A stretch of 64,000 nucleotides of DNA from an uncultured Acidobacteriota bacterium (lineage in GTDB: Bacteria; Acidobacteriota; Terriglobia; Acidiferrales; UBA7541), in the NCBI GenBank assembly GCA_963828935.1, contig CAWHGP010000005.1, forward strand, positions 359,100 to 423,099. Direction: 5' to 3'. The translations under genes and the position numbers were made by a program. How positions within the stretch are numbered: the stretch's first letter is position 1; each line of letters begins with the position of its first letter. Shown in pieces: positions 25,425-62,653 of this stretch. The notes under the pieces are model-generated. The model was not told where the DNA came from. It was given only the letters and a program-made list of their open reading frames with translations, and did no database searches.

Positions 25425-25920
25425 ATGTTAAAAGATATGGCCTGGACGGTTGCGCTGATTGCGGTGATTGCTGCTTGCAGTGTTAATGTGCTCGCCTCTT
25501 GTAGTCGCCCAAACTGATGGCTGGGACCGATCCGTACCGGCGCCAGCGAAGAATCAGAAGGCACCTCCTGCTCCAGCCAGGACATTTCTGGGACTTGGGA
25601 CCCAGGTAATCGCGGAATCCAGGCAATGGGCACGGGGGCAATGCCCGAAGATGGTAAGCCGGAACATGAGTTGCCCTATACTCCTGCTGGGTTGGCAAAG
25701 TTGAACACCACTAAGCCGACCAATGGGTCGAGGAACTCAGCGTAAAGATCGATGATCCTAAAATGTATACGAAGCCCTGGATGGCCCTTGACAGGTTACA
25801 GTTCATTTTGAGACCGGCCGATTTCGATGTTAGGGAAATGATGTGTTCACCCTCCGAGCTCGCGGAATATAACAAAGAGATTGGCGACACCGAGTTACCC
25901 TCTAACGGCAAAGCCAGTAA
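25425..25920 (+). pseudogene. A-type gene remnant: frameshifted N-terminus, core deleted, C-terminus retained
   Basis: AAGGAG box plus ATG at 25425. Pieces: LLAVLMCSPLVVAQ, ..DISGTWDPG.., HELPYTPAGLAKLNTTKP, then directly DDPKMYTKPWMALDRLQFILRPADFDVREMMCSPSELAEYNKEIG. Confidence 0.6.
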
Positions 25921-28269: not shown

Positions 28270-28873
28270 TCATTTGGCTGCGAAATTCAGTTTGGTGGAA
28301 CCAGGTGGCTATAGGCCGCCGGCGCCGGCCTCCTATAGCCGAGCGCCCAGTGCGGTCTCCTGGTGTTGTATTCCACCCGCCACTTTTCGATCACAATCTG
28401 CGCCTCCTTTAGCGAGTAAGAGATCTCCCCGTTCAGGCACTCATCCCGCAGCTTTCCATTAAAGCTCTCGCAGTAGCCATTCTCCCAGGGACTGCCCGGG
28501 TCGATGTACGGCGTGCCCGTTCCGATCTTCCCCAGCCACTTCCGCAGTTCTTTGGCCACAAACTCCGGGCCGTTGTCAGACCGAATGTGCTTCGGGATCC
28601 CTCGCCATACCATCACATCTGCCAACGTCTCGATTACTTCATAGCTCCCCAACCGCCTGGCCACTCGAATCGCCAGGCATTCCCGTGTGTATACCTCGAT
28701 TAGCACCAGCAAGCGCAGCGTACGCCCGTCGTGCGTTTTCGCGCCCACGAAATCATAGGCCCAAACGTGGTTAGCCCGCTCTGGCCGCAGCCACACGCAT
28801 GATCCATCGTTGAACCCTAGCCGCCCTCTTGGCTTCTCCTTCTGCGGTTACCTTCAGCCCCTCCCGCCGCCAG
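28270..28873 (-). mobile_element. Second IS3-family element, copy C, 3-prime part (orfB C-terminal two-thirds) in minus orientation
   Basis: ORF 28287..28796 (RPERANHVWAYDF...SDNGPEFVAKELRKWLGKIGTGTPYIDPGSPWENGYCESFNGKLRDECLNGEISYSLKEAQIVIEKWRVEYNTRRPH). Upstream, IWRREGLKV lies in a shifted frame. Confidence 0.8.
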
Positions 28874-28879
28874 ATGTAA

Positions 28880-29275
28880 GTAAGCGGAGATCACCCAGCA
28901 GACTTACTACCGCTGGAGAAAAGAATTCGGCGGCCTAAAGCTGGATCAAGCGAAACGGATGAAGGAACTAGAACGGGAGAACGCGAAGCTGAAGCGTTTA
29001 GTAGCAGAGCTGTCTTTGGAGAAGCAGATCCTGAAGGATGCGGCATCGGGAAACTTCTAAGCCCTGAGCGGCGGCGTTGTGCGGTGGAGCATGCGCGCGA
29101 AAAGTACCAAGTGAGCGAGCGGCATGCCTGTCGGCTGCTGGGGCAGTGGCGAAGGACACAACGCTATGCTGCGATCCAAAGGAGCGACGAGGATGCCTTG
29201 ACCGACGCGATTATTGCACTGGCCAGTGAATACGGTCGCTACGGCTACCGGGGGATCACTGTGGAGTTGCGCGCG
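28880..29275 (+). mobile_element. Second IS3-family element, copy C, internal 5-prime part (end of orfA, start of orfB) in plus orientation
   Basis: ITQQTYYRWRKEFGGLKLDQAKRMKELERENAKLKRLVAELSLEKQILKDAASGNF*, then MEHAREKYQVSERHACRLLGQWRRTQRY...YGRYGYRGITVELR. It lacks the left end and lies head-to-head with 28270..28873. Confidence 0.8.
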
Positions 29276-29351
29276 CGACCTATCGAGTGTCGGAGCGGCA
29301 TGCCTAACGGCCGCTGGGCAGTGGAGAGGGGAAGCAAATCAGAGCGCTAAC

Positions 29352-30218
29352 TTATTTGGCCGCTTCGTCTCCCGTACCCGCCGGTACGGCCAGTGTATCC
29401 CGATACTCGATGGCTTGCGATGGGACGCAGAAAACCTCCTGGAAATCTTGCGCCTTCATCCAGTAGTAATTCGCTTTCAAGAATACCCACGGCTTGGTGT
29501 AGAACTTCGGATCGTCCAGCGTGGCCGTCAACTGTATGGTGTATTGGTCCACGCGCGTGTAGCGCTCCTCGATGTGCGCGGTCTTGCTCTTCACGTGCCC
29601 GGCCTCGTCCAGCCAGGATCCCTCGTCCAGTCCCGTCGTTTCGATGACGAACGTGTAGTCCCCATCCCAGTGCCCTATCGAATATCCGTAAAATCTCGAA
29701 TCAGGGTACCCTTTGGCGTCGATGTTTTTGGGCAGTTCGCGCCCATCCATCCACACTTCCCGCCACACACGCTGGTGCTGCTTCAGAATGATCATCCGGT
29801 CCGCCACTGGCTCAAACCACATTCCTCCCCGGCTCTCGATCGCGTGATTAAACAGATCCCTCGGAAAACCGAGCGGATCACACGTCGCGAAGGGGTCATT
29901 GGTGGCCGCCAGACGCACCACAGACTCAGGCTTATTGAGCTTGAACCGCGCCTCGCCCGCGGGCGTCATCGGGGGCATCGGATCTCGCGTAGTCTTTATT
30001 GGTCCCGCCCAAGCGCCCGTTATATCCCGCTTGGGAGCAGGCCCGGGCGGGTTCGGCATCTTAGGAATTCCCGCGCCGACATACTCGTCGGCCTGCTGCA
30101 CGAAGCCTGTCGGGAACTGCTTCTTTGGCTGTTGCGGCTGTGTTTGCGCCACAACAGTCGATGAAAGCGCTACTACCGCAAAGAAAGCAGCGATTGTTTC
30201 AGCGACTCGATTTCGCAT
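29352..30218 (-). CDS. A-type exported protein (A1), uncharacterised family
   Basis: ATG at 30218 preceded by GGAGAAGGAAG. Signal peptide MRNRVAETIAAFFAVVALSSTVVAQ. Motifs: PAPKRDITGAW, CDPLGFPR, WMDGRELP, GYSIGHWDGDYTFVIETTG, EERYTRVD, DDPKFYTKPW, FCVPSQ. Confidence 0.8.
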   Translation of the reverse strand: MRNRVAETIAAFFAVVALSSTVVAQTQPQQPKKQFPTGFVQQADEYVGAGIPKMPNPPGPAPKRDITGAWAGPIKTTRDPMPPMTPAGEARFKLNKPESVVRLAATNDPFATCDPLGFPRDLFNHAIESRGGMWFEPVADRMIILKQHQRVWREVWMDGRELPKNIDAKGYPDSRFYGYSIGHWDGDYTFVIETTGLDEGSWLDEAGHVKSKTAHIEERYTRVDQYTIQLTATLDDPKFYTKPWVFLKANYYWMKAQDFQEVFCVPSQAIEYRDTLAVPAGTGDEAAK

Positions 30219-30344
30219 CTTCCTTCTCCTCTCCACCTAACACGGACCATTTGCCCAAGTCACACCTCCGAAAAGATCGGAGCCAAAATGCCTGCTCGTC
30301 TCTCCTCTCTGCGCTTCGGCTATCGCGTCTCGGCGACAGTTCCG

Positions 30345-30791
30345 CTATTTGGCGTTATAGCCGCTCGAATCCTTATCGGGTTTGTATGGGGCCTTCACAC
30401 CGTTTGCACCAAGCACAGTATCATGTAGCTCGGTCCCATCGGACAGCACGATCTTATTGAGGCGGCCGACCGGATTACCCGTTTTGCTGGGCCACACGTA
30501 GGCGTCAATCACGTCCCCAGGCGCCAAGGAACTCTTGCTCCAACCGATCAGCCCAACGTTCGTGGACGGGCCGGTTTCAACAACCCAATGCTTGACGGTC
30601 CCTTTGTCGTCCTTCGCATCCATATTAATCAGGCAATGAGGACTGGCCCATAAGAACTTCGTCACGGTTGCTTGCTTGAGCTCAACGAACTTGTCAGAGT
30701 AAGCCGCGCTTCCATGATGTGCCAGCGCGGAGCCACAAACACCGAGAAATCCGACACACAGCACGAACCGCACGAGCAACATGCTCTTCAT
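30345..30791 (-). CDS. B-type small exported protein (B1), DUF6152-like
   Basis: GAGGAGG box 6 nt before the ATG. Signal peptide ending SALA followed by HHGSAAY. Also WASPH, HWVVE, APGD. Confidence 0.8.
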   Translation of the reverse strand: MKSMLLVRFVLCVGFLGVCGSALAHHGSAAYSDKFVELKQATVTKFLWASPHCLINMDAKDDKGTVKHWVVETGPSTNVGLIGWSKSSLAPGDVIDAYVWPSKTGNPVGRLNKIVLSDGTELHDTVLGANGVKAPYKPDKDSSGYNAK

Positions 30792-30981
30792 TCGCTACCT
30801 CCTCGAAAAAGAATCTTCGCGATTGGTATTATCATACACTCATCCTCGTCCGCAAGTCAGACCGATATTCCTCACCTTCAACCTGATTGGCGCCTGGGTT
30901 CTGAATTTCGCTGGACCCTCCGAAGGCCAGATCGAATCTTGTATAGTATTGGGTGAGGGGGACGCAAATCAGAGTGCTAAC

Positions 30982-31848
30982 TTATTTGGCCGCTTCGTCT
31001 CCCGTACCCGCCGGTACGGCCAGTGTATCCCGATACTCGATGGCTTGCGATGGGACGCAGAAAACCTCCTGGAAATCTTGCGCCTTCATCCAGTAGTAAT
31101 TCGCTTTCAAGAATACCCACGGCTTGGTGTAGAACTTCGGATCGTCCAGCGTGGCCGTCAACTGTATGGTGTATTGGTCCACGCGCGTGTAGCGCTCCTC
31201 GATGTGCGCGGTCCTGCTCTTCACGTGCCCGGCCTCGTCCAGCCAGGATCCCTCGTCCAGTCCCGTCGTTTCGATGACGAACGTGTAGTCCCCATCCCAG
31301 TGCCCTATCGAATATCCGTAAAATCTCGAATCAGGGTACCCTTTGGCGTCGATGTTTTTGGGCAGTTCGCGCCCATCCATCCACACTTCCCGCCACACAC
31401 GCTGGTGCTGCTTCAGAATGATCATCCGGTCCGCCACTGGCTCGAACCACATTCCCCCCCGGCTCTCGATCGCGTGATTAAACAGATCCCTCGGAAAACC
31501 GAGCGGATCACACGTCGCGAAGGGGTCATTGGTGGCCGCCAGACGCACCACAGACTCAGGCTTATTGAGCTTGAACCGCGCCTCGCCCGCGGGCGTCATC
31601 GGGGGCATCGGATCTCGCGTAGTCTTTATTGGTCCCGCCCAAGCGCCCGTTATATCCCGCTTGGGAGCAGGCCCGGGCGGGTTCGGCATCTTAGGAATTC
31701 CCGCGCCGACATACTCGTCGGCCTGCTGCACGAAGCCTGTCGGGAACTGCTTCTTTGGCTGTTGCGGCTGTGTTTGCGCCACAACAGTCGATGAAAGCGC
31801 TACTACCGCAAAGAAAGCAGCGATTGTTTCAGCGACTCGATTTCGCAT
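30982..31848 (-). CDS. A-type exported protein (A2)
   Basis: Differs from A1 at a single residue within the predicted product (KSRTAH versus KSKTAH). Confidence 0.8.
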   Translation of the reverse strand: MRNRVAETIAAFFAVVALSSTVVAQTQPQQPKKQFPTGFVQQADEYVGAGIPKMPNPPGPAPKRDITGAWAGPIKTTRDPMPPMTPAGEARFKLNKPESVVRLAATNDPFATCDPLGFPRDLFNHAIESRGGMWFEPVADRMIILKQHQRVWREVWMDGRELPKNIDAKGYPDSRFYGYSIGHWDGDYTFVIETTGLDEGSWLDEAGHVKSRTAHIEERYTRVDQYTIQLTATLDDPKFYTKPWVFLKANYYWMKAQDFQEVFCVPSQAIEYRDTLAVPAGTGDEAAK

Positions 31849-31999
31849 CTTCCTTCTCCTCTGCACGTAACACGGGCGACATCACCCGACCCAATTGCCC
31901 AAGCCAGACCTTCCGAAAGATCGGAGCCAAAATGCCCGCTCGTCTCTCCCTCTCTGCGCTTCGGCTATCGCGTCTCGGCGACGGTTCCCCTATTTGCCG

Positions 32000-32464
32000 T
32001 TACTTGCTGTTCGAACCCGCATCGGGAGCGGATGTTGGCCCCTGGCCAGGAACGTTGTACCGGTTCTTCCCGGCGGCTCCACCAAGCTGCGTATCATGCA
32101 ACTCCGTCCCATCGGCCAGCACGAGCTTGTTGAGGCGGCCGACCGGGGCACCCGATTTGCTCGGATACACGTAAACGGTAGTTACGTCCCCAGGGGCGAT
32201 GGAAGTCTTGCTCCAACCGATGAGCCCAATATTCGTAGCCGGGCCCGTTTCAACAACCCAATGCTCGACGGTCCCTTTGTCGTTCTTGGCATCGAAATTG
32301 ATCAGGCAATGAGGACTCGCCCACATGAACTTCGTCACCGTTGCTTGCTTGAGTTCAATGAGCTTCTCCGAGTAAGCCGCGCTTCCATGATGTGCCAGCG
32401 CAGAGCCGCAAACACCGAGAAATCCAACACACAGCACGAACCGCACGAGCGACCTGCTCTTCAT
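32000..32464 (-). CDS. B-type small exported protein (B2), DUF6152-like
   Basis: Same leader and ALA|HHGSAAY as B1. About twenty substitutions in the core and an unrelated Gly/Pro/Ser-rich tail. Confidence 0.8.
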   Translation of the reverse strand: MKSRSLVRFVLCVGFLGVCGSALAHHGSAAYSEKLIELKQATVTKFMWASPHCLINFDAKNDKGTVEHWVVETGPATNIGLIGWSKTSIAPGDVTTVYVYPSKSGAPVGRLNKLVLADGTELHDTQLGGAAGKNRYNVPGQGPTSAPDAGSNSK

Positions 32465-32594
32465 TCGCTACCTCCTCGAAAAAGAACCTTCGCGATTGGT
32501 ATTATCATACACTCATCCCCGTCCGCAAGTCAGACCGATATTCCTCACCTTAAAACCTGATTGGCACCTCGGTCTGAATTCCGCTGGGCCGATC

Positions 32595-33791
32595 TTATCT
32601 GTCTGTCCGCCAGCTCGGAATTGGCTTGCCGAACTTCGCGGTGTCAATCGCGACGTTCGCATGTAGCTCGCTCATGATCAGCGTCGAGCGGCCGTCCGTC
32701 CAGGTCACGACCCATTGATAGGGCATCTTCACCCCGTTCACGTCACGATAGTCCGAGAAATCTACCTGCGTCGGAACGACGCCCACGGGCGAATTCGAAT
32801 AACGAACGTAGCGCAGCAGAAGGCCCGAAGTCGAATCAAAGTACAACTTAACAGGAAGCCCCCCGGCTACCAATCTTCCCTGTATCACTTGCACTTCTTC
32901 TTTGGCCGTATCGATTTTCTCCGGAAACCCCACTCGCCAGTCGACCAATGACTCTTTGATCTTCATGGGAAAAGACACTATGGCGTCAAACTTCGCCCCG
33001 GCGAGATCGTCCCCAGTGAGCGGAATCAGAGGAAGCGGTCGCAGCGTTTGCGGAGCAGACAGCCAGCCCGCCCGCCCATCGTAAGCCCAGATGCTATCGC
33101 CGTCCGGCATGTGAGCAAACGTGGCACGCTGGTTCGGAGCCCTTGCATAGACGTCCACTGAAACCTTCTCCAACGCCGTTTCATATCCTTGGTAGGTGCC
33201 CTTCCCCGCGAAACTCGTCACAGCCGACGCGCGCTGTGCCCCACCGATGGCCTGGATATATTTGTTGAAGATAGGATCGACCGATGCGTCCCTGTTGGCC
33301 ACGATTTCATCCGGCTCAGTGTCCGGCATTTCGCTGTATTGAATCGCCAAATCGGGGATCACCCGCGGGTGCGTAGTACCCCGGTGGCACGTCCAGCAGG
33401 TCACCATGCGCTGCCCACTAAACGAAGTCCGGTTAATCGTCTGCACCAGAAGGATCATCATGCGCGCACGATTCTTGAGCGGTGTGTCGTCGGCATACTT
33501 AGCCCAATCGCTTCCGCTGTCTTCGGTATGGCAATCGGTGCAGTTCAGGCCGGTGGAGGCGGCGAAAAAACCCATCGTCTCCATGAATTCCTCCACCGGA
33601 ACGCCCTTGAGCAACTGAACATTCTTGAACACCTGCTCGACCAACTGTGGCTTCTGTTCCGTACCTGCGCCGGTTCCTTGGCCGCGCGCGATCACGCAGC
33701 CGAGCAGGCAAAATGCGGCCATTCCCGCAGCACGCAATATCACCCTGGAGACACTCGCATTCATCTCGCCCCGTCTCGCCATCTTCAACAC
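32595..33791 (-). CDS. D-type dihaem c-type cytochrome (photosynthetic-reaction-centre cytochrome-subunit-like N-domain plus ~250-aa C-terminal domain), D1
   Basis: FKNVQLLKGVPVEEFMETMGFFAASTGLNCTDCH ... MVTCWTCHRG (two CxxCH motifs). The C-terminal part looks like a LolA-like beta domain (YIQAIGG..., LYFDSTSGLLLRYV, DYRDVNGVKMPY). Confidence 0.8.
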   Translation of the reverse strand: MLKMARRGEMNASVSRVILRAAGMAAFCLLGCVIARGQGTGAGTEQKPQLVEQVFKNVQLLKGVPVEEFMETMGFFAASTGLNCTDCHTEDSGSDWAKYADDTPLKNRARMMILLVQTINRTSFSGQRMVTCWTCHRGTTHPRVIPDLAIQYSEMPDTEPDEIVANRDASVDPIFNKYIQAIGGAQRASAVTSFAGKGTYQGYETALEKVSVDVYARAPNQRATFAHMPDGDSIWAYDGRAGWLSAPQTLRPLPLIPLTGDDLAGAKFDAIVSFPMKIKESLVDWRVGFPEKIDTAKEEVQVIQGRLVAGGLPVKLYFDSTSGLLLRYVRYSNSPVGVVPTQVDFSDYRDVNGVKMPYQWVVTWTDGRSTLIMSELHANVAIDTAKFGKPIPSWRTDR

Positions 33792-33865
33792 CGTTCACCT
33801 TGCCTTCATGGCATTCATCCCCCAAGGCCTCGACAGCTTCCTACCTTGACGGGCATTGAAACTCC

Positions 33866-34200
33866 CTAAGGCCGCAAAACGCCGGCCCGTTGTCGCAGCA
33901 AATCACTTGCGGGTTCCTGCGCTCGGCCATGATCCCCTCCGGCACCCGCGTCGCCCTCCGGCTGGCAAAGCTGGTATCCACCTCCAAAGCCAGACACTCC
34001 CCGCACTGACCGCCTAGGCTGACAGTGGCGGCTTGATGCCGCCAGCGGCACTAAGCCGTATGCACACCGCTGACTGAAGGCATATTCCGGCCTCGTCTGC
34101 CCGGCAGCGGCCTTCAAGGCTATCAGATTCTCCCGTTTTTTCGAATCACCGACTGCAGCGCTTCCTTGTCCAGGCTCAGATCCGTAGGACGCGGCCTCAT
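33866..34200 (-). mobile_element. Scar of an IS3-family element
   Basis: Minus-strand frames read DLSLDKEALQSVIRKN (orfA tail) and GECLALEVDTSFASRRATRVPEGIMAERRNPQVICCDNGPAF (integrase core), with most of the element missing. Confidence 0.55.
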
Positions 34201-34219
34201 GGGTAGTATAGGCCGCTCA

Positions 34220-37200
34220 TTAAAAGATGTATTTCAGGGCGATTTGAATGATGCGCGGAGCCACCACCTGGGTGCTGATTAACCCGAACGTCGACTGATT
34301 GGCGGCCGTGTTCGGCAAATTAAACTGTGGATGGTTAAACGCGTTGAAAAATTCGGCGCGGAACTGCAGCGACTGGCCTTCCCGGATGGCAATGAGTTTT
34401 GCCAGCGACATGTCCCAATTGTATTGGCCAGGTCCCAGCACGCTACCGCCAGCCACGTTGCCGAAGCCCGAAGCCGCTCCTGCGGGAGCGGTCTGGTTGG
34501 GACCGAGCGGGACGAACGCACTGCCATTCCAATAGGGAGCATTGCACAGCACCCCTTGGGTCTTGCTGTTAAAATAACCCACACCGCTAGAGCTTCCGAC
34601 CGGAATGCCCAGCAATCCGCTGGAGACGCGATCTTCTATGCTCCCTGTAGTTAGCAAATTGGCCGCCGTCATCCCCGGACAAAATGTCGCGTTCGAGCCC
34701 GAGCCGGTGCCGCCGAAGAATACCGATCCGCCATTATCCGTTACGGTCAGCGGCAGGCCGCCCTGTCTCGTGGTTACGCCGGACCACGTCCAATCGTCAA
34801 CCAAACGACCTACGAGCCCCTTGTAACGGGGGACAGGCAAATTCCAGACATAGTTAATCACAAAGCGGTTCGGATGGTAGTTGCTATTCGGCTCATACAC
34901 TTGAGCAAGATAGGGGTAGGTGTTGAACCCTTCCGTCTGGGTATCGAGAGCCTGGGCATAGGTGAAGTCGGCTTGCAAGGTTAATCCGTAGGATATCTGC
35001 TTACGAACCGTAAATTGTACCCCATTGTATTTGAGCAGGCCGTTGTACGTGAATTGCGAAGCAGTCGGACTTACACCCAGGTAAGGCACGCGCTCAATCA
35101 CATTCGCCGCAGTGCTTGTGGTCACTCCGGTGAGCGCGCAACTGGAACAGTGCCCATCGGTTGCGAGAGGCGCGAGGTTGAAACCAATCTCAGAACCTCC
35201 CTGTCCTTGATGCCCATCAAATGAGGAGCGGGTTTGAGGCAGCTGATCGATGCCATGAGACCCGACGTAAGCGACCTCCAGCACCCAGTTGTGCAAAAAC
35301 TCATACTGGGTGTTGAGATTCCACTGGTACATCAGAGGAACCTTCAAACCCGGCCCGACGCCCGATGAAGTTAGGTTCGAACTGCAAGGAGGCGCGGGGC
35401 ATACCACGGGTATCGGGGTCGATACGTCGAGCCACCGAGTGACCCATCCAGCAGTGCCCTGCGGTCCGGGATAAACGGCCGGCCCGAACTGAAAGGGTTG
35501 TGCCAGAGTGGCGAGTGTATTTGGACTAGCGTTGGGTATCAATCCGGGCTGGGAGATCTCGAGCACATTCATGAATGACTGTCCTGGCGTGGCATCATAG
35601 AAAAAGCCGCCGCCGCCACGCATAACCCAACGAGCGCTTTTCGTGGGTTGCCAGGCGAACCCGAGACGCGGAGCAAAATCGTCTTTAGGGGAGTTGGGAT
35701 TGGTCAGCCCATCATTACTGTTCACAAAAACACCCGGCGGGACGGGGCCCGGGTAATTGGCCGGTACCACAAATCCAGCCAGGGTGCCCGTCTGCGGCGT
35801 GCTGCCCGGAAGCGCCACCGTTCCCGCCAAGCTGGGCCAGATGCTGCTCATTAGGCCCCGGCCTTCGTAGATGTTGCCGTCGTATTCCCACCGGAGTCCG
35901 GCGTTCACCGTTAAACGCGGGGCTAACTTGTAGTCATCCTGAACAAAACCACTCAGCACGTTGAGGCGGAAATAATTGGAGAATAGGCCATTTTCACTGC
36001 CTCCTCCGCCACTGCTACTGGTTGAAAAACCATTGGTGTTGCCGGGATTGTTGGGCCCGCAGACGCCAACTCCGGTGAAAGCCTGACACGATGCCCTGCC
36101 GATCAGGAAATCGGCAAGCGAGTTGAATGACGCCGACGGCACCGCATGCCCTGGGAAGGAAGTCCTCACCTGCACGTGCCAAGCACCTACGCCAAACCGA
36201 AGCGAGTGATCTCCGTGTTGCCAGGAAATCTGCTCGTTGGCTTGGAATTGGTTAACTATATCGTTCACACCGAAACTAGTGTTGGCCCCGAAACTAAACC
36301 CCGGAGTGGTAATGGACGCGAGTTGATCGTATCCCGGCACCAAATCCGCGATGCCCACCTGCGAATTCGTGAAGGGAGTTAGATCCGAGCTCACCGTCGA
36401 GATGCGCTGGTAGGCGACATTTGCTTGGTTCACCACATTCGTGGATAAAACCGAGGTAAGTTTCAGGATAGCTTGTTGGTTGTCGTGAGTGATCTGCACA
36501 CCATTCCCAGGCAGATACACACCAACCGGAGAGTTGGAATCGTTGGACGGGAAACCCCCGGAAATAGGATCTTTTTCGTACTGATAACGGGCGGCGAGGG
36601 TTTCCTTGCTATTGATCACGTAATCCCAATTGTTCAAGAAGTTGTGATCGCGAAATGTGGCAGGATCCGCAAACCCCTCGCTCGCGAAAGCTGCGCTGGC
36701 CCCCGAGCCGACGCCCGAGCCGGGAATCATATATTGGCCGTTGGGGAACCGAAGTTGCAAAATACTGATGGCCACAGGATTCATGTTCGCCAGCGGGGCG
36801 GCCGGGCTCAACGCGCACTGCACCTGGATGGTGGTATTCGTGGCGGCACTGGTTTGGAAATTCTTAACCGTACCGGCCGGTTTATTGCCGGGGCACATGT
36901 TGGCCGCCAAATCCGTTACGAACTTTGTTGTCGCCGCGCTGCACTGGGCCAGCGTGGTCCAACCGGCGGGACAGGTGCCGCGGTCTTCCAGCGGAATCGG
37001 AGGTAACGTGGCTACTGACTGGCCGAATGCCGAAATACCGTTCGTCTGGCGGGTTTCCTGATAAGAGGCGAAGAAGAAGAGCTTATCTTTCTTGACTGGT
37101 CCGCCGAATGTGCCCCCGAACTGATTGGAGTTCAAAACCCCTCTCGGCTCACCTAAAACGTTGTTGATAAAACTATTCGCATTTAGTGCGGTGTTGCGGA

Positions 37201-38050
37201 AGAATTCAAACGCGTCTCCATGGAAGTTATTCGTGCCTGTTTTGGTGATCACGTTGACGCTCGCGCCGGGATTGCGCCCGTAGCCCGCGTCGGCGCTCGA
37301 GGTTTGGACCTTGAATTCTTGAATGGAATCGGGATTGGGAAGCACGAAAGTGCCGCCTGAAAAGGACTCCTGACCGGTGTTGAAGCTCAAATAGGAAGTG
37401 ACATCGACGCCGTCTTGTGAAAAATTATTTTGAGAAAAGCCCGCGCCATTTACGGCAATGTAGGTAACGCCCTTCCCAATCTGGCTGGCGTTTGGGGCGT
37501 TGGAGTTGGCTCCCGCAGACATCGACAAGAGGCTTGTGTAGTTGCGGGTGTTCAGGGGCAGCTCCGCCACCGTTCTGTTGGTCAGCACTTGCCCCATTGC
37601 CGAACTGGTGGTCTGAATGTTCTCTACCGAACCTTCCACCGTAACCGTCTGCGCCGTGGCACCCACCTCGAGAGCCCGGTCCATCGCTTCCGTCTCCGTA
37701 ACCAATACGGTTAGGGAAGGAATCTCGACGGCTTTGAATCCGTTGGCCTCAATTCTTAGCCGGTAATTGCCCGGTGGCAGCAAACTGAATTTGTACGTGC
37801 CGTCCGCCTCAGTCATCGTGGTTCGTGTCTGGCTGGTATCCACGCTTGTAGCCGTGACTGTGGCGTTCGGCACCGCGGCGCCGGAAGCATCGGTAATTCT
37901 TCCGGTCAACGCGCCCGTCGACGCCGTCTGGGCCATGAGGGTTGTTCCGGAAAACAAGACAATAAGGATGAGAACCACACACAGGCGCTTACACCCCATA
38001 GTGTCCCCCTTTGGGGAGATAGAAGAATCGGAACGGCTCGCGTTCCGCAT
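34220..38050 (-). CDS. TonB-dependent receptor with an N-terminal carboxypeptidase-regulatory-like domain (TBDR2)
   Basis: STGALTGRITDASGAAVPNATVTATSVDTSQ...GTYKFSLLPPGNYRLRIEANGF, plug motifs, and a barrel ending APRIIQIALKYIF. Paralogous to TBDR1 throughout. The likely start is the ATG at 37999 (MGCKRLCVV...). Confidence 0.9.
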   Translation of the reverse strand: MRNASRSDSSISPKGDTMGCKRLCVVLILIVLFSGTTLMAQTASTGALTGRITDASGAAVPNATVTATSVDTSQTRTTMTEADGTYKFSLLPPGNYRLRIEANGFKAVEIPSLTVLVTETEAMDRALEVGATAQTVTVEGSVENIQTTSSAMGQVLTNRTVAELPLNTRNYTSLLSMSAGANSNAPNASQIGKGVTYIAVNGAGFSQNNFSQDGVDVTSYLSFNTGQESFSGGTFVLPNPDSIQEFKVQTSSADAGYGRNPGASVNVITKTGTNNFHGDAFEFFRNTALNANSFINNVLGEPRGVLNSNQFGGTFGGPVKKDKLFFFASYQETRQTNGISAFGQSVATLPPIPLEDRGTCPAGWTTLAQCSAATTKFVTDLAANMCPGNKPAGTVKNFQTSAATNTTIQVQCALSPAAPLANMNPVAISILQLRFPNGQYMIPGSGVGSGASAAFASEGFADPATFRDHNFLNNWDYVINSKETLAARYQYEKDPISGGFPSNDSNSPVGVYLPGNGVQITHDNQQAILKLTSVLSTNVVNQANVAYQRISTVSSDLTPFTNSQVGIADLVPGYDQLASITTPGFSFGANTSFGVNDIVNQFQANEQISWQHGDHSLRFGVGAWHVQVRTSFPGHAVPSASFNSLADFLIGRASCQAFTGVGVCGPNNPGNTNGFSTSSSGGGGSENGLFSNYFRLNVLSGFVQDDYKLAPRLTVNAGLRWEYDGNIYEGRGLMSSIWPSLAGTVALPGSTPQTGTLAGFVVPANYPGPVPPGVFVNSNDGLTNPNSPKDDFAPRLGFAWQPTKSARWVMRGGGGFFYDATPGQSFMNVLEISQPGLIPNASPNTLATLAQPFQFGPAVYPGPQGTAGWVTRWLDVSTPIPVVCPAPPCSSNLTSSGVGPGLKVPLMYQWNLNTQYEFLHNWVLEVAYVGSHGIDQLPQTRSSFDGHQGQGGSEIGFNLAPLATDGHCSSCALTGVTTSTAANVIERVPYLGVSPTASQFTYNGLLKYNGVQFTVRKQISYGLTLQADFTYAQALDTQTEGFNTYPYLAQVYEPNSNYHPNRFVINYVWNLPVPRYKGLVGRLVDDWTWSGVTTRQGGLPLTVTDNGGSVFFGGTGSGSNATFCPGMTAANLLTTGSIEDRVSSGLLGIPVGSSSGVGYFNSKTQGVLCNAPYWNGSAFVPLGPNQTAPAGAASGFGNVAGGSVLGPGQYNWDMSLAKLIAIREGQSLQFRAEFFNAFNHPQFNLPNTAANQSTFGLISTQVVAPRIIQIALKYIF

Positions 38051-38064
38051 TTTTTATGGCGTGG

Positions 38065-38097
38065 GATATAGCAAATGCTTCGCTTGTCTGTCAAGCT
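38065..38097 (-). promoter_or_regulatory. Putative sigma70-type promoter of TBDR2
   Basis: The minus strand reads AGCTTGACAGA (38087-38097), a 17-18 nt spacer, then CTATAT/TATATC (38065-38071). Confidence 0.4.
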
Positions 38098-38774
38098 CAA
38101 TTGTGGTCTCGCCAGCACCGATGTCCGCTCGCAGACCAGTTGTCCTCTTTGGCCGAAGGGGTACCTCGCGGCGAACCAAATCCGCGTGCCGAGAAACCAT
38201 TACGCCGATAAGCGACCAGCATCGCAATGCTCATCAAAAAGCAGCGTGGAAAATGCAATGCCCCACATCGATAGGTTCGGCCGTACATTAGGTGGGGCCG
38301 CAGGCCCGATGAGGATCTGGGCTTGGCACTGCCTTTGACCGTCATGGGGGTTGTTTACGGTGCCGGAAGCCGGAGCAATAGCCCGTGCAGGACTGAACCT
38401 GCAAGTGACCCCGGATGGCGATACTTCCACAGCCAAAGCTTACTATCGGCGAAGCCGCTGGTTGAAGTGATCAGCTGAGATTCCGACGAAGGAGTATCTC
38501 CGCCGATTCGCGGAGTCTTTTCAACGTTGCAAAGACGCCGAGTTGTTGCACAGATTCGGTTTGGGACTTAGCCGAGAGTGCAGCGCTGGCTCGAACTAGA
38601 TTTCTGAGCGAGCGATGGGCCGGGTCTGTGTGATTCCTAACGTGCCAAACTTGGCGATAAGTAAGCGCATTTAATCCGCGAGGAGCGGGTATAACGCACG
38701 TGCGGTACGTCAAACTTCATCATGAGCCGAAGCAGTGAAGATCCGGATCAGCGGCTTCGGGATATTCGCGTTAG

Positions 38775-39736
38775 CTACTTGTTTTCGGGGTTCGGCTTCA
38801 CGGCCGGGGCTTCCTTGGTGTTTACGCCAACTACTTTATTATATTCCGCGTTTTCTGACGGCACACAGAAATTTTCTCTGATATCGAAATCGGGGGGCTG
38901 CAGGTAGAGAACGAGCTTATTTTGAGTCATCCACGGTTCCGTATACATCTGCGGGTCGTTAATAATCACCGTGTGTTCCATTCTGTCATTGTCCAACCGG
39001 TGAAATATTTCCGTAACCCGCACATCCTTGCTGTGCGGACGGCCGGCATGATCGATCCAGCTTTTTCATTCAGTCCGACCGTTTCGGACACGAAAGTGTA
39101 ATCGTCCATCCAGTGGCCAACAGAGTACCCGTTATATCGTGGTTTGGGATTCTTGGGGAGTTCTCGCCCGTCCGTCCAAATGGTGCGCCAATCGTGATTC
39201 ATTTCAGTCAAGAAAAGCACATGGTTCTTCGTCTGAACCAGCTGGAACGTCCTAAACTCAAAACTCTCCGTGTACGGGAACCCTACCGGCTCACAGCTGT
39301 CATATGGATCATTTGCGAGGAAGGAAGGGACTGATCTGATTGATGTTCCCGACGGCTTATGGGACTCAAGGGTTTTCTCTCCCAACGGCGTGTAAGGTAT
39401 GGGATGTGGAATACCATTCTCGTTAGGTTGCCCTGACCGAGGCCTAGGATCTCCTTGGGCGAACATAGCTGGATGTTCAGCCACGCCACCTGCCTGGACT
39501 CCCCCTGACTCTGTGGCATCCCAAATGCCAGAGAGGTCACGGCGCGGAGCGGGACCTGCCTTTCCCTTGTTACGGGCCGGATTGTCCCTCCCATTTCCAT
39601 TGAACGGGTCACTATTCCACTTGTCGCGCTTCGCCTCTGCTGACTGCGTTGGCGTGGCGGTTTGAGCGCGCAGAATCGGTGAGGACCTAAATACTGCAAG
39701 CAAGGCAATCGCCGCGAACACGAAGCGCTTTGGCAT
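38775..39736 (-). pseudogene. A-type exported protein (A3) with a single frameshift
   Basis: MPKRFVFAAIALLAVFRSSPILRAQ..., GPAPRRDLSGIW, CEPVGFPY, WTDGRELP, GYSVGHWMDDYTFVSETVGLNEK. The frame is lost at the T5/A5 run 39062-39066. The shifted frame continues SWIDHAGRPHSKDVRVTEIFHRLDNDRMEHTVIINDPQMYTEPW...FCVPSE (ORF 38775..39023). Confidence 0.8.
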
Positions 39737-39852
39737 TTGCGAAATCCTCCAACGTTCCGATTCCAACTTGCGATTGAGCTTCCGAATACTACACGCAAGC
39801 AACACACCGAGCCTGGCCTGGGCTCGGACCACTAGTGGTTGCGGCACTCACG

Positions 39853-40269
39853 CTAACCATTCGGAGAGCGACCGGCTGCGCCTCCGCCGGTGAACTCTCG
39901 ACCATTGATTACGATATGGCTGCCGGCAAAACGTCCGAGCGGGTTGGTCGCAGACTGGTTCTTGTAGGGAGTCACGTCAACAACCACTTCATCCCCGGGT
40001 TTGAACATAGCTTTGCTCCAGCCTTGGTTGGCCACGCTCGCTGTGCCTGCGGATTCTATAATCCAATGCGCCGTCTCACCGCTGTCGGTCTTCTCATCGA
40101 GCTTCAGGAAGCAGTGGGGATTAGCCCAAAACCACTGCGTGACCGTTCCCTTCACCGTCACTTTTTTCGAGGTGTCGTACACCGCGGCCCCGTGGTGTGC
40201 GAACAACGGAACGGAAACCGCCAACAGGCCCACCACCACCAGGGAAAAGACCGTAAGTTTGGTTCTCAA
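39853..40269 (-). CDS. B-type small exported protein (B3), DUF6152-like
   Basis: Signal ...VSVPLFA followed by HHGAAVY. Also WANPH, HWIIE, KPGD. Confidence 0.8.
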   Translation of the reverse strand: MRTKLTVFSLVVVGLLAVSVPLFAHHGAAVYDTSKKVTVKGTVTQWFWANPHCFLKLDEKTDSGETAHWIIESAGTASVANQGWSKAMFKPGDEVVVDVTPYKNQSATNPLGRFAGSHIVINGREFTGGGAAGRSPNG

Positions 40270-40416
40270 AGGAACCCTCCTTCCAAAAGTTCAGTCTGAA
40301 CCTCATACTAACTGGAATTTCCGATTCGAATAACAGGATCAATGTCTTAATCTATTCTGACTCGCCTGGCACGACCGGATGTTACGGACCGACATGACCT
40401 CCAACAATGGCTCTGA

Positions 40417-41340
40417 CTATTTGTCCGCCGTCACATTATCAAGTAGCTTCTTGTACTCCGGTATCGCCGATGGGGAGCAAAATGATTCCCCCACGTCGAA
40501 GTCGTCCGGCAAACGATGGAGGACGAACTTGTTTAAGGCCTGCCAAGGCTGCTTATAGTATTCGGGGTCGTCAATGGTGAGCGTGAGCTCCAAAGTGTCA
40601 GAATCCACGCGGTGGTATCGTTCCTCCACTCGCATATTGGCGGTGTGTGGACGGCCAGCATTATCAAGCCAAGTCCTCTCATCCATCCCATCCGTCTGGA
40701 CCACAAAAGTGTAATCGTCCACCCAGCGGCCCACTGAATACCCGTTCCACCTCGGTTCGGCACCACTTTTAACATCCGGAAGCGCTCGGCCATCGGTCCA
40801 GATGACGCGCCAAGCGTAAAAAGGTTGATACACGGCAATCACCTGGTTCGCCGTCTGTTCGAACTCGACTACTCTAAATTGGGAAAGGGCCATTCGGGGA
40901 AACCCCACTGGGTCACAGATGCCTACCGGATCATTTTGCTGGCCGGGGCGAACTCCTCTGGCTCCTGCTGCCGGTTTATTGGCTTTAAGCGCTGCCAGCC
41001 CCGCAGGCGTGTACGTTAAGGGACGCGCAACATTCCTCTCGTCCGCTTGTCCTCCGAGTTCACCCACCGGGTGACCCGGTACCAGTGCCGGGTGCTCCAG
41101 CGCCCCCGTTGCCTGGGCTCCCCCCTCGGCTTCCCCATTCCAAAATCCCGACAAATCACGGCGTGGAGCGGGACCCTTCGTGATCCCAGCGTACGCGGCC
41201 TTCTGCGGTGGGGCATCATCCCACGGTGGCATGGCCTTGGCTTCCGCGCCTTTGGCCGGCGCGGTTTGTGCGCCCAGAAAGGGCAAGAAGCCTGATAGTG
41301 CAACTAGTACTACCGCCGAGACTAAAAAGCGCCTTGGCAT
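40417..41340 (-). CDS. A-type exported protein (A4)
   Basis: GGGGAG box before the ATG at 41340. MPRRFLVSAVVLVALSGFLPFLGAQ, GPAPRRDLSGFW, CDPVGFPR, WTDGRALP, GYSVGRWVDDYTFVVQTDG, EERYHRVD, DDPEYYKQPW, FCSPSA. Confidence 0.8.
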   Translation of the reverse strand: MPRRFLVSAVVLVALSGFLPFLGAQTAPAKGAEAKAMPPWDDAPPQKAAYAGITKGPAPRRDLSGFWNGEAEGGAQATGALEHPALVPGHPVGELGGQADERNVARPLTYTPAGLAALKANKPAAGARGVRPGQQNDPVGICDPVGFPRMALSQFRVVEFEQTANQVIAVYQPFYAWRVIWTDGRALPDVKSGAEPRWNGYSVGRWVDDYTFVVQTDGMDERTWLDNAGRPHTANMRVEERYHRVDSDTLELTLTIDDPEYYKQPWQALNKFVLHRLPDDFDVGESFCSPSAIPEYKKLLDNVTADK

Positions 41341-41457
41341 TTCCAACTCCCCTGACAACTTAATCGATCCAGCTCTTCGGATTCGGCCCCGTGGTCTTTC
41401 GCGTAGAATCGTATTCCGCCGTGAGGAATGGTGAGCCCATGCTCCAGCATCAGAATT

Positions 41458-42496
41458 CTAGTTTTCACTGACCCGTTCCTTCCCCGCTTGTGCTCCAGAT
41501 TTGAGGCTGTGGTACGCTGCCTCGATGAACACATCCGTGGTCCACTTCCCACCCGGGTTCCCATATCGCGCATCGTAATCAAGCGTCGGCCGCGCCGCCT
41601 TCACCTGCTCCAGCGTCATCCCTCTTTTGATCATATCCTGAATGCGGTCGCGGATGATGGCAACCATGTTGCGATAGTACACCACGTCGGCGAAGCCCGC
41701 GATACGGCCATGCCCCGGGATTACCAACGTGCCGCCTTGCTCGTACGCGCTCGGAACGGCGACCTCGAGCAGTCGATTCAGGCTATCCAGGATCGCCTGG
41801 AGACTTCCGCCGGCTTTCAGGTCGATGAGCGGATACTCAGCAAGATCAAGCAAATCCCCCGCTAGCGATCACATCGGACTTGCGGAAAAAGACGACGCTG
41901 TTGCCGTCCGTATTCGCGGGCATATGCATGATCACCACGGCTTCACCATTAAAGTAGAGCCTCTTTTCCGGCGAGGAATACGTGTTGTCTGGCCAGTCGG
42001 CTTTCCGGTCGCGCGGGCGATTTGCTATTCGCCCCGATCATCCTGTCATACACGCGGAGATACGAGATCACCGAAGCCCGGTGCGTATCGAGCGAATTCT
42101 GGACCTTGGCGGCGTCGCCTACGTCAAACGGAATGATTTCGCCGGTTGCAGCGATTTTGGCATTGCCTCCCGTATGATCTTCACTATCCGTCGTGTCGAC
42201 AATGTACCTGAGGCTCTGCTTGGAGATCGTGGCGATGGCCGCCAGTACCTTATCGCTCATAGCGGCCGTTCCCGTGTCCACCAAGAGGATGCCATCTTCG
42301 CCCGCCTGCACGGTGATATTGCCGCCTGCCCCGATCAGCACCCACACATTGCCCTGGACCGGAAGAATTTGAATTTCCCCGGGGGCGGGCCCCTTCAGTT
42401 TCGGCGCCCACATGCCGGTTTTGGACTGCGAATAAAGGTGCTCGGTCCCAGCAAAGTGAGACACGCCACGAGCGCGAACATTTGCCATCGCCTCAT
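41458..42496 (-). pseudogene. Decayed paralogue of the MBL-fold gene (MBL-prime)
   Basis: ORFs 41949..42527 and 41458..41853 are colinear with 47690..48727 (WAPKLKGPAPGEIQILPVQGNVWVLIGAGGNITVQAGEDGILLVDTGTAAMSDKVLAAIATISKQSLRYIVDTTDSEDHTGGN ... VIPGHGRIAGFADVVYYRNMVAIIRDRIQDMIKRGMTLEQVKAARPTLDYDARYGNPGG). There are frameshifts in the leader and mid-gene. Confidence 0.8.
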
Positions 42497-43408
42497 GGCT
42501 GCGCTTCCTCGGTTGCCGGAGCGGCAACCTTCGGAGGCCGAGGCATGGATTTCATTTTCTTGATGTACTCCGGATACATCGTTTCCGCTCCTCCAAGTCT
42601 CGGCTCATAGGGCGTTCCGAACTGATCGGTCAAATCCTTGTTCAGCGCGGGCAAGGACTCTTTCCGGGAAGGAAGTTCGGAACCGCGCCCCGCGGGACGG
42701 GGCTATCAGCTCGCCTCTTCGCATGGGTACGGGGGCATCTGCATCGTCGGATCGTCGACCCACATCATGCTGCTTCGGATGTAGGGTTCGGTCATATAGA
42801 CCGGATCGTAAAGAATGGACGTGGCTTGCAAATAGCTGCCCCAAGCGGCGCCAGCGTGTGCGTACCGTTGCTCGGTCGCTCCGCATGAGTCCGTCGCGCC
42901 GCTCGTATGACTCCTTGAGGTGCGTCGTGGTCACGACCAAAGTGTCGCCGTCCCATTCGCCGGTCGAAAATCCGCTCCAGGTGTGCACGGCGTTCTCGGG
43001 AGGATGCGGGCGGCCATCCATCCAGATCGTCTCCTCCTGCTCCTCCATGATTGACGTGGCCATGGTAAGCGATGATCTTCTGCGTGATGTGGATCGGCGT
43101 CGGCCCAGAACCGGATTGGAGCGAACGCGGACCCTCCAGCGAATAGTCCCAAGCGTGCGGCCGGCAACTCAACTCTGTGGTGTCGAAGTCCTCCGGAGAC
43201 CAACTCGCACTCTCGCCCGATCGCCGTCCGTCACTGGAATCCCGGCGATATCCCTAACCATTCCGCTTCCATCTTGTTTGCGTGGAAGCGGACGCCACGA
43301 ACCTTGTAGGTCGACTTGAGCCAGCGCTGGAGCCCCTAGCGTTAACAGGAACACAAAGAGTGACGCCCAGCGATTCCTCAGCACCCGAGGGATTCGCACG
43401 GAGTACAC
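42493..43408 (-). pseudogene. Decayed paralogue of the C-type gene (C-prime)
   Basis: Pieces QVDLQGSWRPLPRKQDGSGMVRDIAGIPVTDGDRARV / EEQEETIWMDGRPHPPENAVHTWSGFSTGEWDGDTLVVTTTHLKESYERRDGLMRSDRATVRTRWRR in several frames. It retains the ATGA stop/start overlap with MBL-prime (42493-42496). Confidence 0.8.
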
Positions 43409-43680: not shown

Positions 43681-44141
43681 CCAGGGGTGGCCTACTTGCC
43701 GACCATCAGAAGTACAAATGAGCCCGGCAGCATGGGGCCACGGGGCGGGCCCGCTGGTCGTGCCGGTGCCCCAGGCGGAGCCGGAGTCGAACTCAGCCGA
43801 CATCAGCAAGATGTGGTTCGTCTTCCGGTCAATCGTCAGCGTCTTAGCAACGGGCATGGTCTGTCAGGTTCTGTTCTACCTCGAAGCTGGTGGGGCTGTT
43901 TTCCTTAATCACCGTGAGCGTGCCATCGCTCTGCGAGCTGAATGCTTCCATCGTTGCGGGGTTGAATACGGCGCCATCCGTGCCAGTACCAATGGGCAGG
44001 GTGGTGATGATCTTGCCGTCGTTAGCATTGAGAATCACCATCGTTTGGGGGTTGCGGCAGGCGACGAACAGAACCTGGCTCTTCGCATTGAGTGCCAGCC
44101 CGGCGCACGTGCCACCTTTGCCGACGAGATCGTACGTGGCA
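43681..44141 (-). pseudogene. Duplicated fragment of the 3-prime half of the YncE-like gene
   Basis: Nearly colinear with 26351..26818, including the stop codon and ~20 nt of 3-prime flank. It has scattered substitutions and small indels. Confidence 0.85.
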
Positions 44142-44402
44142 CGGTTAAGGACTCGTCAGGCGCTGTGACTCCGAATGCAACTGTCACGGCCATTAGTGTC
44201 GACACTGGCCAAGTACGAACCACGATTAAAGGAGCGGACGGCGCATACAAGTTTGGTTGCTGCCGCCAAGCAACTTCCAGGTGAAGGTTGAGGTAGCTGG
44301 ATTTGGCCGCGCTGAGGTTCCGTCCGCAACGGTTAGCGTGACCTAGACGGCGGTGTTAGATGTTGCCATGAAGGTGGGCACGCAAACGCAGTCGGTCACA
44401 GT
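44138..44402 (+). pseudogene. Fragment of a TBDR N-terminal (CarboxypepD_reg) domain
   Basis: GTVKDSSGAVTPNATVTAISVDTGQVRTTIKGADGAYKF..., then a frameshift, a TAG at 44344-44346 where TBDR1 has Glu (VTETAV), and an end at ...TQTQSVTV where the IS3 copy begins. Confidence 0.8.
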
Positions 44403-45461
44403 TGACCTGACCGGCTTGAATTAGTCCAGCGGGAGTGAGAGAAAATCACTCTAAAGGAGAGCTGGACATGCCGATGAAGAGATACAAGCCGGAGCAGATC
44501 GTGAATCTACTGCGGCAGATCGAAGTGGAAATCGCGAACGGAAAAACCACACCGCAAGCCTGCAAGGAAGCTGAGATCACCAGCAGACCTACTACCGCTG
44601 GAGAAAAGAATTCGGCGGCCTAAAGCTGGATCAAGCCAAACGAATGAAGGAACTGGAGCGGGAGAACGCGAAGCTGAAGCGTTTGGTAGCAGAGCTGTCT
44701 TTGGAGAAGCAGATCCTGAAGGATGTGGCATCGGGAAACTTCTAAGCCCTGAGCGGCGGCGTTGTGCGGTGGAGCATGCGCGCGAAAAGTACGAAGTGAG
44801 CGAGCGGCATGCCTGTCGGCTGCTGGGGCAGTGGCGAAGGACACAACGCTATGCCGCGATCCAGAGGATCGACGAGGATGCCTTGACCGAAGCGATTATT
44901 GCACTGGCCAGTGAATATGGGCGCTACGGCTACCGGAGGATCACTGTGGAGTTGCGTAAAGCGGGCTGGCAGGTGGGCAAGGATCGGGTGCAGCGCATCT
45001 GGCGGCGGGAGGGGCTGAAGGTGCCGCAGAAGCAGAAGCCAAGAGGGCGGCTATGGTTCAACGATGGATCATGCGTGCGGCTGCGGCCAGAGCGGGCTAA
45101 CCACGTTTGGGCCTATGATTTCGTGAGCGCGATGACGCACGACGGGCGGACGCTGCGCCTGCTGGTGCTGATCGACGAATACACACGGGAATGCCTGGCG
45201 ATTCGAGTGGCCCGGCGGTTGGGGAGTTACGAGGTAATCGAGACGTTGGCAGATGTGATGGTATGGCGAGGGATCCCGGAGCACATTCGGTCTGACAACG
45301 GCCCCGAGTTCGTGGCCAAAGAACTGCGGAAGTGGCTGGGGAAGATCGGAACGGGCACGCTGTACATCGAGCCCGGGCAGTCCCTGGGAGAACGGCTACT
45401 GCGAGAGCTTTAACGGAAAGCTGCGGGATGAGTGCCTGAACGGGGAGATCTTTTACTCGCT
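44403..45461 (+). mobile_element. Second IS3-family element, copy B: left end present, orfA and orfB frameshifted, 3-prime end truncated
   Basis: TGACCTGACCGGCTTGAATTAGTCCAGCGGGAG start. orfA loses frame after KEAEIT (1-bp loss relative to copies A and C). orfB 44769..45413 loses frame near 45385. Homology to copy C stops after NGEIFYSL. Confidence 0.85.
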
Positions 45462-53224: not shown

Positions 53225-53235
53225 CGGATCTGCCT

Positions 53236-62614: not shown

Positions 62615-62653
62615 TTCCAGAGACCCTTCGGCATCATCTCTGGACCGGTCAAT

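Follow-up and report, generated by a model that had tools for sequence, protein, structure and literature searches.

We examined a 64,000-nt stretch of DNA from an uncultured Acidobacteriota bacterium (GenBank assembly GCA_963828935.1, contig CAWHGP010000005.1, positions 359,100 to 423,099; hereafter the window), in which genes for small exported proteins of two kinds, designated B and A, recur as pairs among genes for TonB-dependent receptors (TBDRs), c-type cytochromes (D) and exported metallo-beta-lactamase-fold proteins (MBL). In soil, Acidobacteriota rank among the most abundant bacteria, and little is understood of the many receptors in their outer membranes. Gene families were located from the list of open reading frames together with a six-frame scan with hidden Markov models (HMMs). 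This reproduced the minus-strand order given in a preliminary description of the same DNA (C', MBL', A4, B3, A3, a gap, TBDR2, a scar of an IS3-type insertion sequence (IS), D1, B2, A2, B1, A1; primes mark copies described as decayed), and the same scan recovered the further copies at 46.5-49.7 kb, at 56.3-60.5 kb and on both sides of TBDR1. The genes that make up the clusters are as follows.

29352-30236, minus strand: A1, exported, predicted calycin-like protein of the A/C/F superfamily
30345-30791, minus strand: B1, DUF6152 (63 bits versus a cut-off of 27), signal peptide ending in SALA, mature N-terminus HHGS
30982-31866, minus strand: A2, tandem copy of A1
32000-32464, minus strand: B2, DUF6152, 79% identity to B1
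32595-33791, minus strand: D1, exported, two-haem PufC-like N-terminal domain (CTDCH, CWTCH)
34220-38050, minus strand: TBDR2, CarboxypepD_reg and OMP_b-brl_4 domains, 45% identity to TBDR1
38775-39847, minus strand: A3, frameshifted by a 1-nt loss near 39066, separated from TBDR2 by a 725-bp gap
39853-40269, minus strand: B3, DUF6152, modelled as an oligonucleotide/oligosaccharide-binding (OB) fold, mature N-terminus HHGA
40417-41358, minus strand: A4, modelled as an eight-strand barrel, conserved Cys148/Cys294 pair
46470-47273, minus strand: F, in the C-MBL-B4-F cluster
47307-47693, minus strand: B4, DUF6152, in the same cluster
47690-48727, minus strand: MBL, in the same cluster
48724-49677, minus strand: C, in the same cluster
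56346-57608, minus strand: D2, second PufC-like cytochrome, 46% identity to D1, divergent from A5
57758-58684, plus strand: A5
59095-59478, plus strand: B5, DUF6152
59492-60505, plus strand: A6
60693-61740, plus strand: X1 and X2, a pair of genes for DUF6644 four-helix membrane proteins, immediately 3' of A6
61817-63604, minus strand: X3 and X4, two further DUF6644 genes, 3' of TBDR3
63914-64000, minus strand: C-terminal end of TBDR3 (last 27 codons, 63914-63994), cut by the window end

The true start of A1 is likely Met7 at 30218, with a GGAGGAG site just 5' of it. The signal peptides on intact members and the ribosome-binding sites of the GGAGG type that had been noted before were likewise seen on inspection.

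We scanned 79 distinct loci encoding relatives of A in GTDB genomes, nearly all of them from Acidobacteriota, with HMMs of the window families. B lies directly upstream of A, on the same strand, for 100 of the 146 A genes, and an A gene directly follows 102 of the 117 B genes. At least two A genes occur in 43/79 loci and at least three in 20/79, and 16-18 or more of the sampled A genes come from single genomes. As a rule, B-A units in Acidobacteriota are repeated, whether in tandem or scattered. The pairwise distances of 99 cognate B-A pairs correlate with r = 0.85 (best of 500 permutations, 0.15), which indicates that the two genes duplicate and diverge together, as a unit. Fusion proteins join the same partners: P0438, present in at least 3 assemblies, carries DUF6152 (residues 25-119) and an A domain (177-368) behind a single signal peptide, the A domain having none of its own, and its mature end reads A↓HHGT (arrow, predicted cleavage); P0441 combines MBL with an A domain (2 assemblies); P0409 and P0432 are tandem A-A proteins. 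The operon arrangement, the co-diversification and the fusions establish B and A as a unit, and the two proteins may be in physical contact.

The window also contains IS630- and IS3-type elements, a resolvase gene, segmental duplications, pseudogenes and two A genes, A1 and A2, that are 99% identical, all of which would suit a cassette that is a local duplication product of an IS-rich region and whose members have no joint function. The same pairing is, however, found in the 79 loci, in dozens of genomes and in other phyla, and is backed by the co-diversification and the gene fusions. We reject a duplication artefact on the basis of this cross-genome conservation, and regard such an origin as very improbable; the earlier view that the repetition is more than a private duplication holds, since the same families occur in the same order in loci from other genomes.

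The B and A proteins

All 5 intact B copies (B1-B5) belong to DUF6152 (PF19649), as had been proposed, with scores of 63-100 bits that are well above the Pfam gathering cut-off of 27. The AlphaFold model of B (predicted local distance difference test (pLDDT) 86) is an OB fold, in which a five-strand barrel carries a helix between strands 3 and 4, and its Foldseek matches are SSB, PriB and the LysRS N-domain (E = 3e-4, template modelling score (TM) to target 0.55-0.65). Searches of B against PDB sequences and profiles returned chance matches only (E of 0.1 or more). Ala-His-His (A24-H25-H26), Pro51-His52, Trp69 and Glu72 are 100% conserved among 99 sequences that are up to 82% different, and signal-peptide cleavage, the site of which was predicted by eye, would leave His as residue 1 throughout this family. 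The motif A↓HH(G/S) is also present in B proteins of Sphingomonadales, Sinorhizobium, Azospirillum, Achromobacter and Rhizobium, the proteobacterial ends reading A↓HHGW or A↓HHSF; all sequences inspected, whatever the phylum, have a mature form that starts with His-His. In the model, the conserved His and Glu map to strands 2-3, the usual ligand face of OB folds, and His26, His52 and Glu72 are candidate further chelators.

In experiments, a conserved N-terminal His marked exported proteins as transition-metal binders irrespective of fold (Franco Cairo et al. 2025, PMC12537917). DUF4198 binds Ni and is encoded near TonB receptors, 'anglerase' domains are tethered to HupE/UreJ permeases, and the N-terminal-His proteins tested had weak oxidase or peroxidase activity only, and were read as binders or transporters (PMC12537917). 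DUF6152 is not among the families of that study, and we found nothing relevant in the literature on DUF6152, PF19649, DUF6644 or DUF2214. An absolute His-His at the predicted cleavage site, combined with the NPH and W..E motifs across phyla, would be difficult to account for if no metal or cofactor were involved. These residues predict a putative N-terminal-histidine metal centre in B. The evidence points toward the redox or metal chemistry of the preliminary description, which we infer as it did. B was also considered as a relative of CusF, and this was rejected (hhalign of the B alignment versus E. coli CusF, probability 1.1%, a comparison of low sensitivity because the template was a single sequence).

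A, C and F had been described as three separate families outside characterised ones. The latter part stands: none of the three matches a family in Pfam up to E = 10 or in NCBIfam up to E = 0.01, or a PDB sequence, and A matches no PDB chain in profile searches either. Rather than three families, they form one superfamily, because they match each other (A4-C, E = 1e-9; C-F, E = 3e-8; A4-F, E = 1e-3) and have a common core motif (D..G.W, C.P.G.P, R.I..DGR, G.S.G.W(E/D)GDT.VV.T, ER, DP...PW, E..C). A profile search of 1.84 billion representatives returned 10,815 members of the A superfamily at E<=1e-3, counted as 50%-identity cluster representatives. The model of A4 (pLDDT 81) contains 8 strands over residues 163-282, and its best Foldseek matches, CRABP2 and FABP, are weak (E = 5e-3, TM to target 0.42-0.52, 10-14% identity); the fold of A is predicted to be a calycin-like barrel, with a weak assignment. 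The conserved features of A include the Cys148/Cys294 pair and an N-terminal segment of ~100 residues.

Neighbouring genes and a candidate membrane partner

The preliminary description had an iterated cassette of B, A and D tied to TBDRs, and saw the exported proteins as repeatedly coupled to TBDRs and c-type cytochromes. Across genomes, the conserved unit is B followed by A and not B-A-D-TBDR, and the other families occur around it in the 79 loci as follows.

TBDR: within 10 kb in 19/79 loci, directly adjacent in 11/79 (28-273 bp)
MBL: within 10 kb in 7/79 loci, directly adjacent in 7/79
D: within 10 kb in 6/79 loci, directly adjacent in 3/79

The 11 nearest-TBDR distances below 300 bp, compared with the other 8, which are spread over 1.5-8 kb, amount to an adjacency spike of ~25 times the local background, so the TBDR link is real for a subset of loci. 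Most B-A pairs are autonomous and a minority is built into receptor loci; the coupling described earlier therefore applies to a subset, in Sphingomonadales too, whereas most pairs stand alone and D is scarce. TBDR1 and TBDR2 score 79 bits for CarboxypepD_reg and 512 bits for OMP_b-brl_4. The TBDR-like genes reach 24.2 bits for PF00593, below the cut-off of 27, with no match to Plug (PF07715), and TBDR2 has no PDB sequence match.

D scores 44 bits for PF02276 (CytoC_RC; cut-off 22) and 63 for NF033196, just below the cut-off of 70. Residues 47-145 align to PufC chains (E = 1e-12), and each D protein has two CxxCH motifs, features that mark D as a PufC-like, non-photosynthetic c-type cytochrome; its C-terminal domain (~230 residues) gave no match in PDB sequence and profile searches. 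Besides the window, four sampled loci (L048, L073, L076, L086) have D beside B and A. The exported MBL is the commonest other neighbour, with 12 cases among the 79 loci and their flanking genes. It scores 48 bits for PF00753 (cut-off 23), and in a by-eye alignment the HxHxDH position reads T-D-R-E-D-H, the first two His, which are canonical zinc ligands, being absent. The nearest NCBIfam models to MBL are SoxH-related 'quinoprotein relay' hydrolases, far below their cut-offs. The four-gene variant calycin-MBL-B-calycin, here C-MBL-B4-F, recurs in L021, L027, L030, L032, L083 and L086. A Pfam scan of 150 other flanking genes revealed no recurrent family beyond TBDR, MBL (5 further genes), D and PEBP, the rest being a mixed set; three Acidobacteriota neighbours are SBP_bac_11 binding proteins.

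Besides B, A, D and TBDR, which had been listed as members of the module, there is a candidate membrane partner, DUF6644, at 60.7-63.6 kb; like the His-His end and the B-A fusions, it had been missed. DUF6644 proteins lie in the membrane with four helices. His, Lys and Trp are invariant among them, with one such His to each four-helix unit, and the genes often come in pairs. At 56-64 kb of the window, A5-B5-A6-X1-X2 on the plus strand converge with TBDR3-X4-X3 on the minus strand, a layout as in Sphingobium (L089) and Novosphingobium (L091). Plasmid records gave these distant relatives of B and A in Sphingomonadales. The loci of Sphingobium and of two species of Novosphingobium have A-B-A-B converging on a pair of DUF6644 genes, next to which lies a TBDR, and two DUF6644 genes adjoin A/B genes in 4/5 Sphingomonadales loci; a Croceibacterium locus reads B-B-A-TBDR-MarR. 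In all 5 sampled proteobacterial loci outside Sphingomonadales (two from Sinorhizobium meliloti, and one each from Azospirillum, Achromobacter and Rhizobium), DUF6152 is encoded directly upstream of DUF6644/DUF2214 in close packing, its stop overlapping the start of the latter in 4/5, and an A gene is absent. These operons of B and DUF6644 without A suggest that B is the hub of the system. DUF6644 had no match in PDB sequence and profile searches. Its identification as CopD was tried and rejected (hhalign versus E. coli YebZ, probability 0.4%; no Pfam CopD match at E<=1).

These partners would also suit a periplasmic redox enzyme, with a catalytic Cu or Fe at the N-terminal His of B and an organic substrate bound by A. 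Electrons would come from D or from a haem-b DUF6644 membrane dimer, as MsrQ feeds MsrP, and the paralogues would correspond to many imported substrates. The recurrence of di-haem D beside B and A is in line with this, as are the exported MBL, the commonest other neighbour and fused to an A domain in P0441, and the single invariant His per four-helix unit of the often paired DUF6644. Constant metal-type residues amid divergent paralogues resemble an enzyme family, and an enzyme explains the number of paralogues, at least 16-18 A genes per genome, better than metal trafficking does. We know of no catalytic activity for any member of the DUF6152 or A families. D is present in only 6/79 loci, and the N-terminal-His proteins assayed by Franco Cairo et al. 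were taken for binders or transporters, their oxidase or peroxidase activity being weak (PMC12537917). Taken together, we consider a redox enzyme unlikely, though it is the main rival to the reading that we favour below. That DUF6152 founds a new class of OB-fold histidine-brace metalloenzymes, which with the calycin partner would oxidise or reduce TBDR-imported compounds and be powered by PufC-like cytochromes or a haem-binding DUF6644 dimer, we regard as improbable.

In S. meliloti (L094, 4537-7480), the B-DUF6644 pair is divergent from cysH-cysD and adjoins betC. The Sphingobium cluster (L089, 1-14339) has as neighbours tauD, a gene for a sulfonate-binding protein and two 'monooxygenase' genes, the N-termini of which we provisionally take to be luciferase-like. 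Such contexts, together with the three SBP_bac_11 neighbours, the lack of a metal regulator nearby, and OB and calycin folds that on their own fit binding proteins, would agree with B and A being envelope or ligand binders without metal chemistry, B being like BOF (YgiW/YdeI) and A a lipocalin-like carrier for some small hydrophobic or anionic compound, possibly in sulfur scavenging; His-His would then have a different role. The sulfur contexts, however, amount to two or three of about 90 loci, and the invariance of His-His at the predicted cleavage site across phyla, with NPH and W..E, argues against binding without a metal, to which we give only a small chance.

Proposed role and comparison with known systems

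We tentatively favour, at somewhat less than an even chance, a reading of B as a periplasmic N-terminal-histidine metal centre that is complexed with its cognate A and, in the full system, stands between the TBDR and DUF6644. The repeated unit would be a two-gene operon, B then A, encoding two periplasmic proteins that act together, probably as a complex. Signal-peptide cleavage would bare the N-terminal His-His of B, a predicted OB-fold barrel of ~110 residues, and these residues, with the invariant histidine of NPH and the Trp and Glu on neighbouring strands, may form a histidine-brace-like transition-metal site. A, as the cognate calycin-like barrel with a conserved disulfide and an Arg/Asp/Glu set, would bind the cargo or substrate and dock on B. 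Where the module adjoins a TBDR, this receptor would carry the cargo over the outer membrane, A and B would deal with it in the periplasm, and B would pass on the metal, or take electrons, at the inner membrane via DUF6644; in some loci the electron partner may be the PufC-like cytochrome D. Paralogous pairs in which the metal site is constant and the rest variable would allow many cargoes with one chemistry. The direction of any transfer among B, A and their partners is something we infer.

A number of observations weigh against a metal centre of this kind. About 86% of B-A pairs are without an adjoining TBDR and few loci have DUF6644, so that most Acidobacteriota pairs must work without either, and the A genes of a single genome, at least 16-18, are beyond the need of simple metal trafficking. 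The invariant residues of A are Arg, Asp, Glu and Trp, which are not classical metal ligands, and its assignment to the calycins is weak (TM to target about 0.5, Foldseek E = 5e-3). By hhalign, B has no profile similarity to CusF and DUF6644 none to CopD. No Fur, Zur or NikR regulator was seen beside the modules; the adjoining regulators, where present, are of MarR, TetR, LysR, AraC or ArsR types, among which the small-molecule types (MarR, TetR) are explained better by the redox enzyme. An operator search upstream of 113 B genes brought up nothing beyond the ribosome-binding site and a motif resembling a promoter; palindromes of the Fur or Zur kind were absent.

Known metal systems resemble the proposed metal centre in several respects. 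CopC-CopD, YobA-YebZ and YcnI-YcnJ are alike in that a small exported protein with an N-terminal metal-binding His is encoded just upstream of a multi-helix membrane partner. CopC and YcnI fold as cupredoxin-like sandwiches and B, by prediction, as an OB fold; DUF6644 has 4 helices, and nothing in those systems corresponds to the calycin partner A or to its expansion. CusF/SilF are small periplasmic OB-fold barrels, and CusF holds its metal on the face of strands 2-3, close to a Trp (ligands His, Met, Met, Trp). CusF has, however, no profile relation to B by hhalign and no N-terminal His, and it serves an efflux pump and not an uptake receptor. The gene order TBDR2-D1-B2-A2 recalls MbnT-MbnP-MbnH, in which a TonB-dependent transporter, a periplasmic copper-binding protein and a di-haem protein are encoded together, but D is PufC-like and not MauG-like, it adjoins a B-A cluster in only 3/79 loci, and the likeness is by gene order only. 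Calycins (lipocalins, FABP/CRABP, siderocalin) share with A the predicted eight-strand meander barrel, the best PDB matches of which, CRABP2 and FABP, are weak; the barrel of siderocalin holds metal chelates through Arg and Lys. The conserved N-terminal segment of ~100 residues and the disulfide of A are absent from calycins. DUF4198, DUF6702 and the anglerases Ang-1 and Ang-2 likewise have a signal peptide followed by a conserved His1, with TonB receptors nearby for DUF4198 and a membrane permease attached for the anglerases, and they have been read as serving metal capture and hand-off (PMC12537917). Their fold is another one; B has two consecutive N-terminal His and a co-evolving soluble partner, and DUF6644 is not HupE/UreJ. 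The resemblance to known metal systems is one of logic, not of family membership.

A promoter-like site (TTCACT / 17 nt / TATAAG) followed by a ~100-nt leader lies ~170 nt upstream of B genes and is kept across paralogues and genomes (L006, L007, L013, L015, L018, L019, L022, L034, L051); this arrangement is absent from the window. The leader upstream of about 15 related B genes showed no convincing RNA structure (consensus -3.4 kcal/mol), little covariation and no Rfam match, and an Rfam search of the window and seven related loci revealed tRNAs only.

The candidate system has three parts, DUF6152, a calycin-like superfamily with no Pfam or NCBIfam model (~10,800 cluster representatives) and DUF6644. 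It extends over both Acidobacteriota and Proteobacteria, among the latter the model organism Sinorhizobium meliloti. If the metal site is true, the system would add a new fold and new partners to the N-terminal-histidine metalloproteins, and would provide a handle on the imports of some of the expanded receptors. If the redox-enzyme class is true, it would represent a previously unseen periplasmic redox system, whose A genes number 16-18 or more in individual genomes of soil Acidobacteriota.

Decay and plasticity of the region

The remaining features of the window are fragments and remnants of the same families, with the receptor gene that they flank.

20880-21035, minus strand, and 25133-25231, plus strand: B remnants beside TBDR1
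21167-25042, minus strand: TBDR1, flanked by B and A remnants
25560-25900, plus strand: A remnants beside TBDR1
33859-33999, minus strand: IS3-type transposase remnant, weak tblastn match (35% identity over 42-49 residues, E = 0.002-0.003)
41458-42527, minus strand: MBL', decayed exported metallo-beta-lactamase-fold gene, matched in three pieces at 41476-42431
42505-43408, minus strand: C', decayed copy of C, in six frame-shifted pieces
44132-44406: TBDR N-terminal fragment

The gene counts given previously were recovered for B (5 intact, B1-B5, and the 2 broken remnants), for A (5 intact, with the frameshifted A3 and the fragments beside TBDR1) and for the receptors (TBDR1 and TBDR2 in full, a third truncated at the edge of the window, and one fragment). 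Both D genes are intact, as described; the D scar reported alongside them had no match in the window at E<=1e-3 by six-frame HMM scan or tblastn. The reported IS3 scar between D1 and TBDR2 is present as a match, a weak one.

The frameshift of A3 is the loss of one A from a run of five A near 39066, and may reflect a sequencing error in the homopolymer instead of a true pseudogene. C' and MBL', in six and three pieces, had been called decayed. Their counterparts are intact in a relative, in which the stretch is 94% identical in DNA and the C protein 97% identical, and the window copy has 15 gap openings over 3.3 kb in comparison, so that both genes are probably truly decayed.

B1-A1 and B2-A2 form a 1.63-kb tandem repeat (29328-30917 versus 30958-32590), and A1 and A2 have 99.3% identity. 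Within the repeat, the A genes are ~99.7% identical and the B genes and spacers only 80-90%, which suggests gene conversion limited to A. The region is plastic, with several segmental duplications, two IS630-type copies that are 99.8% identical (2195-3327 and 17402-18534), rearranged IS3 fragments (28287-29350 and 44561-45504) and a resolvase (9409-10038). In comparison with the relative L083, the stretch from the PEBP gene to C' is replaced by IS3 together with fragments of a beta-propeller gene and a TBDR gene. The PEBP-family (YbhB-like) gene itself, at 45682-46392, is exported and is also found beside the module in L007, L013, L021 and L083. At 50312-55200, between two module clusters, lie genes for a 970-residue multi-haem cytochrome c and an Amidohydro_3 protein, and this pair is kept at the same place in L083.

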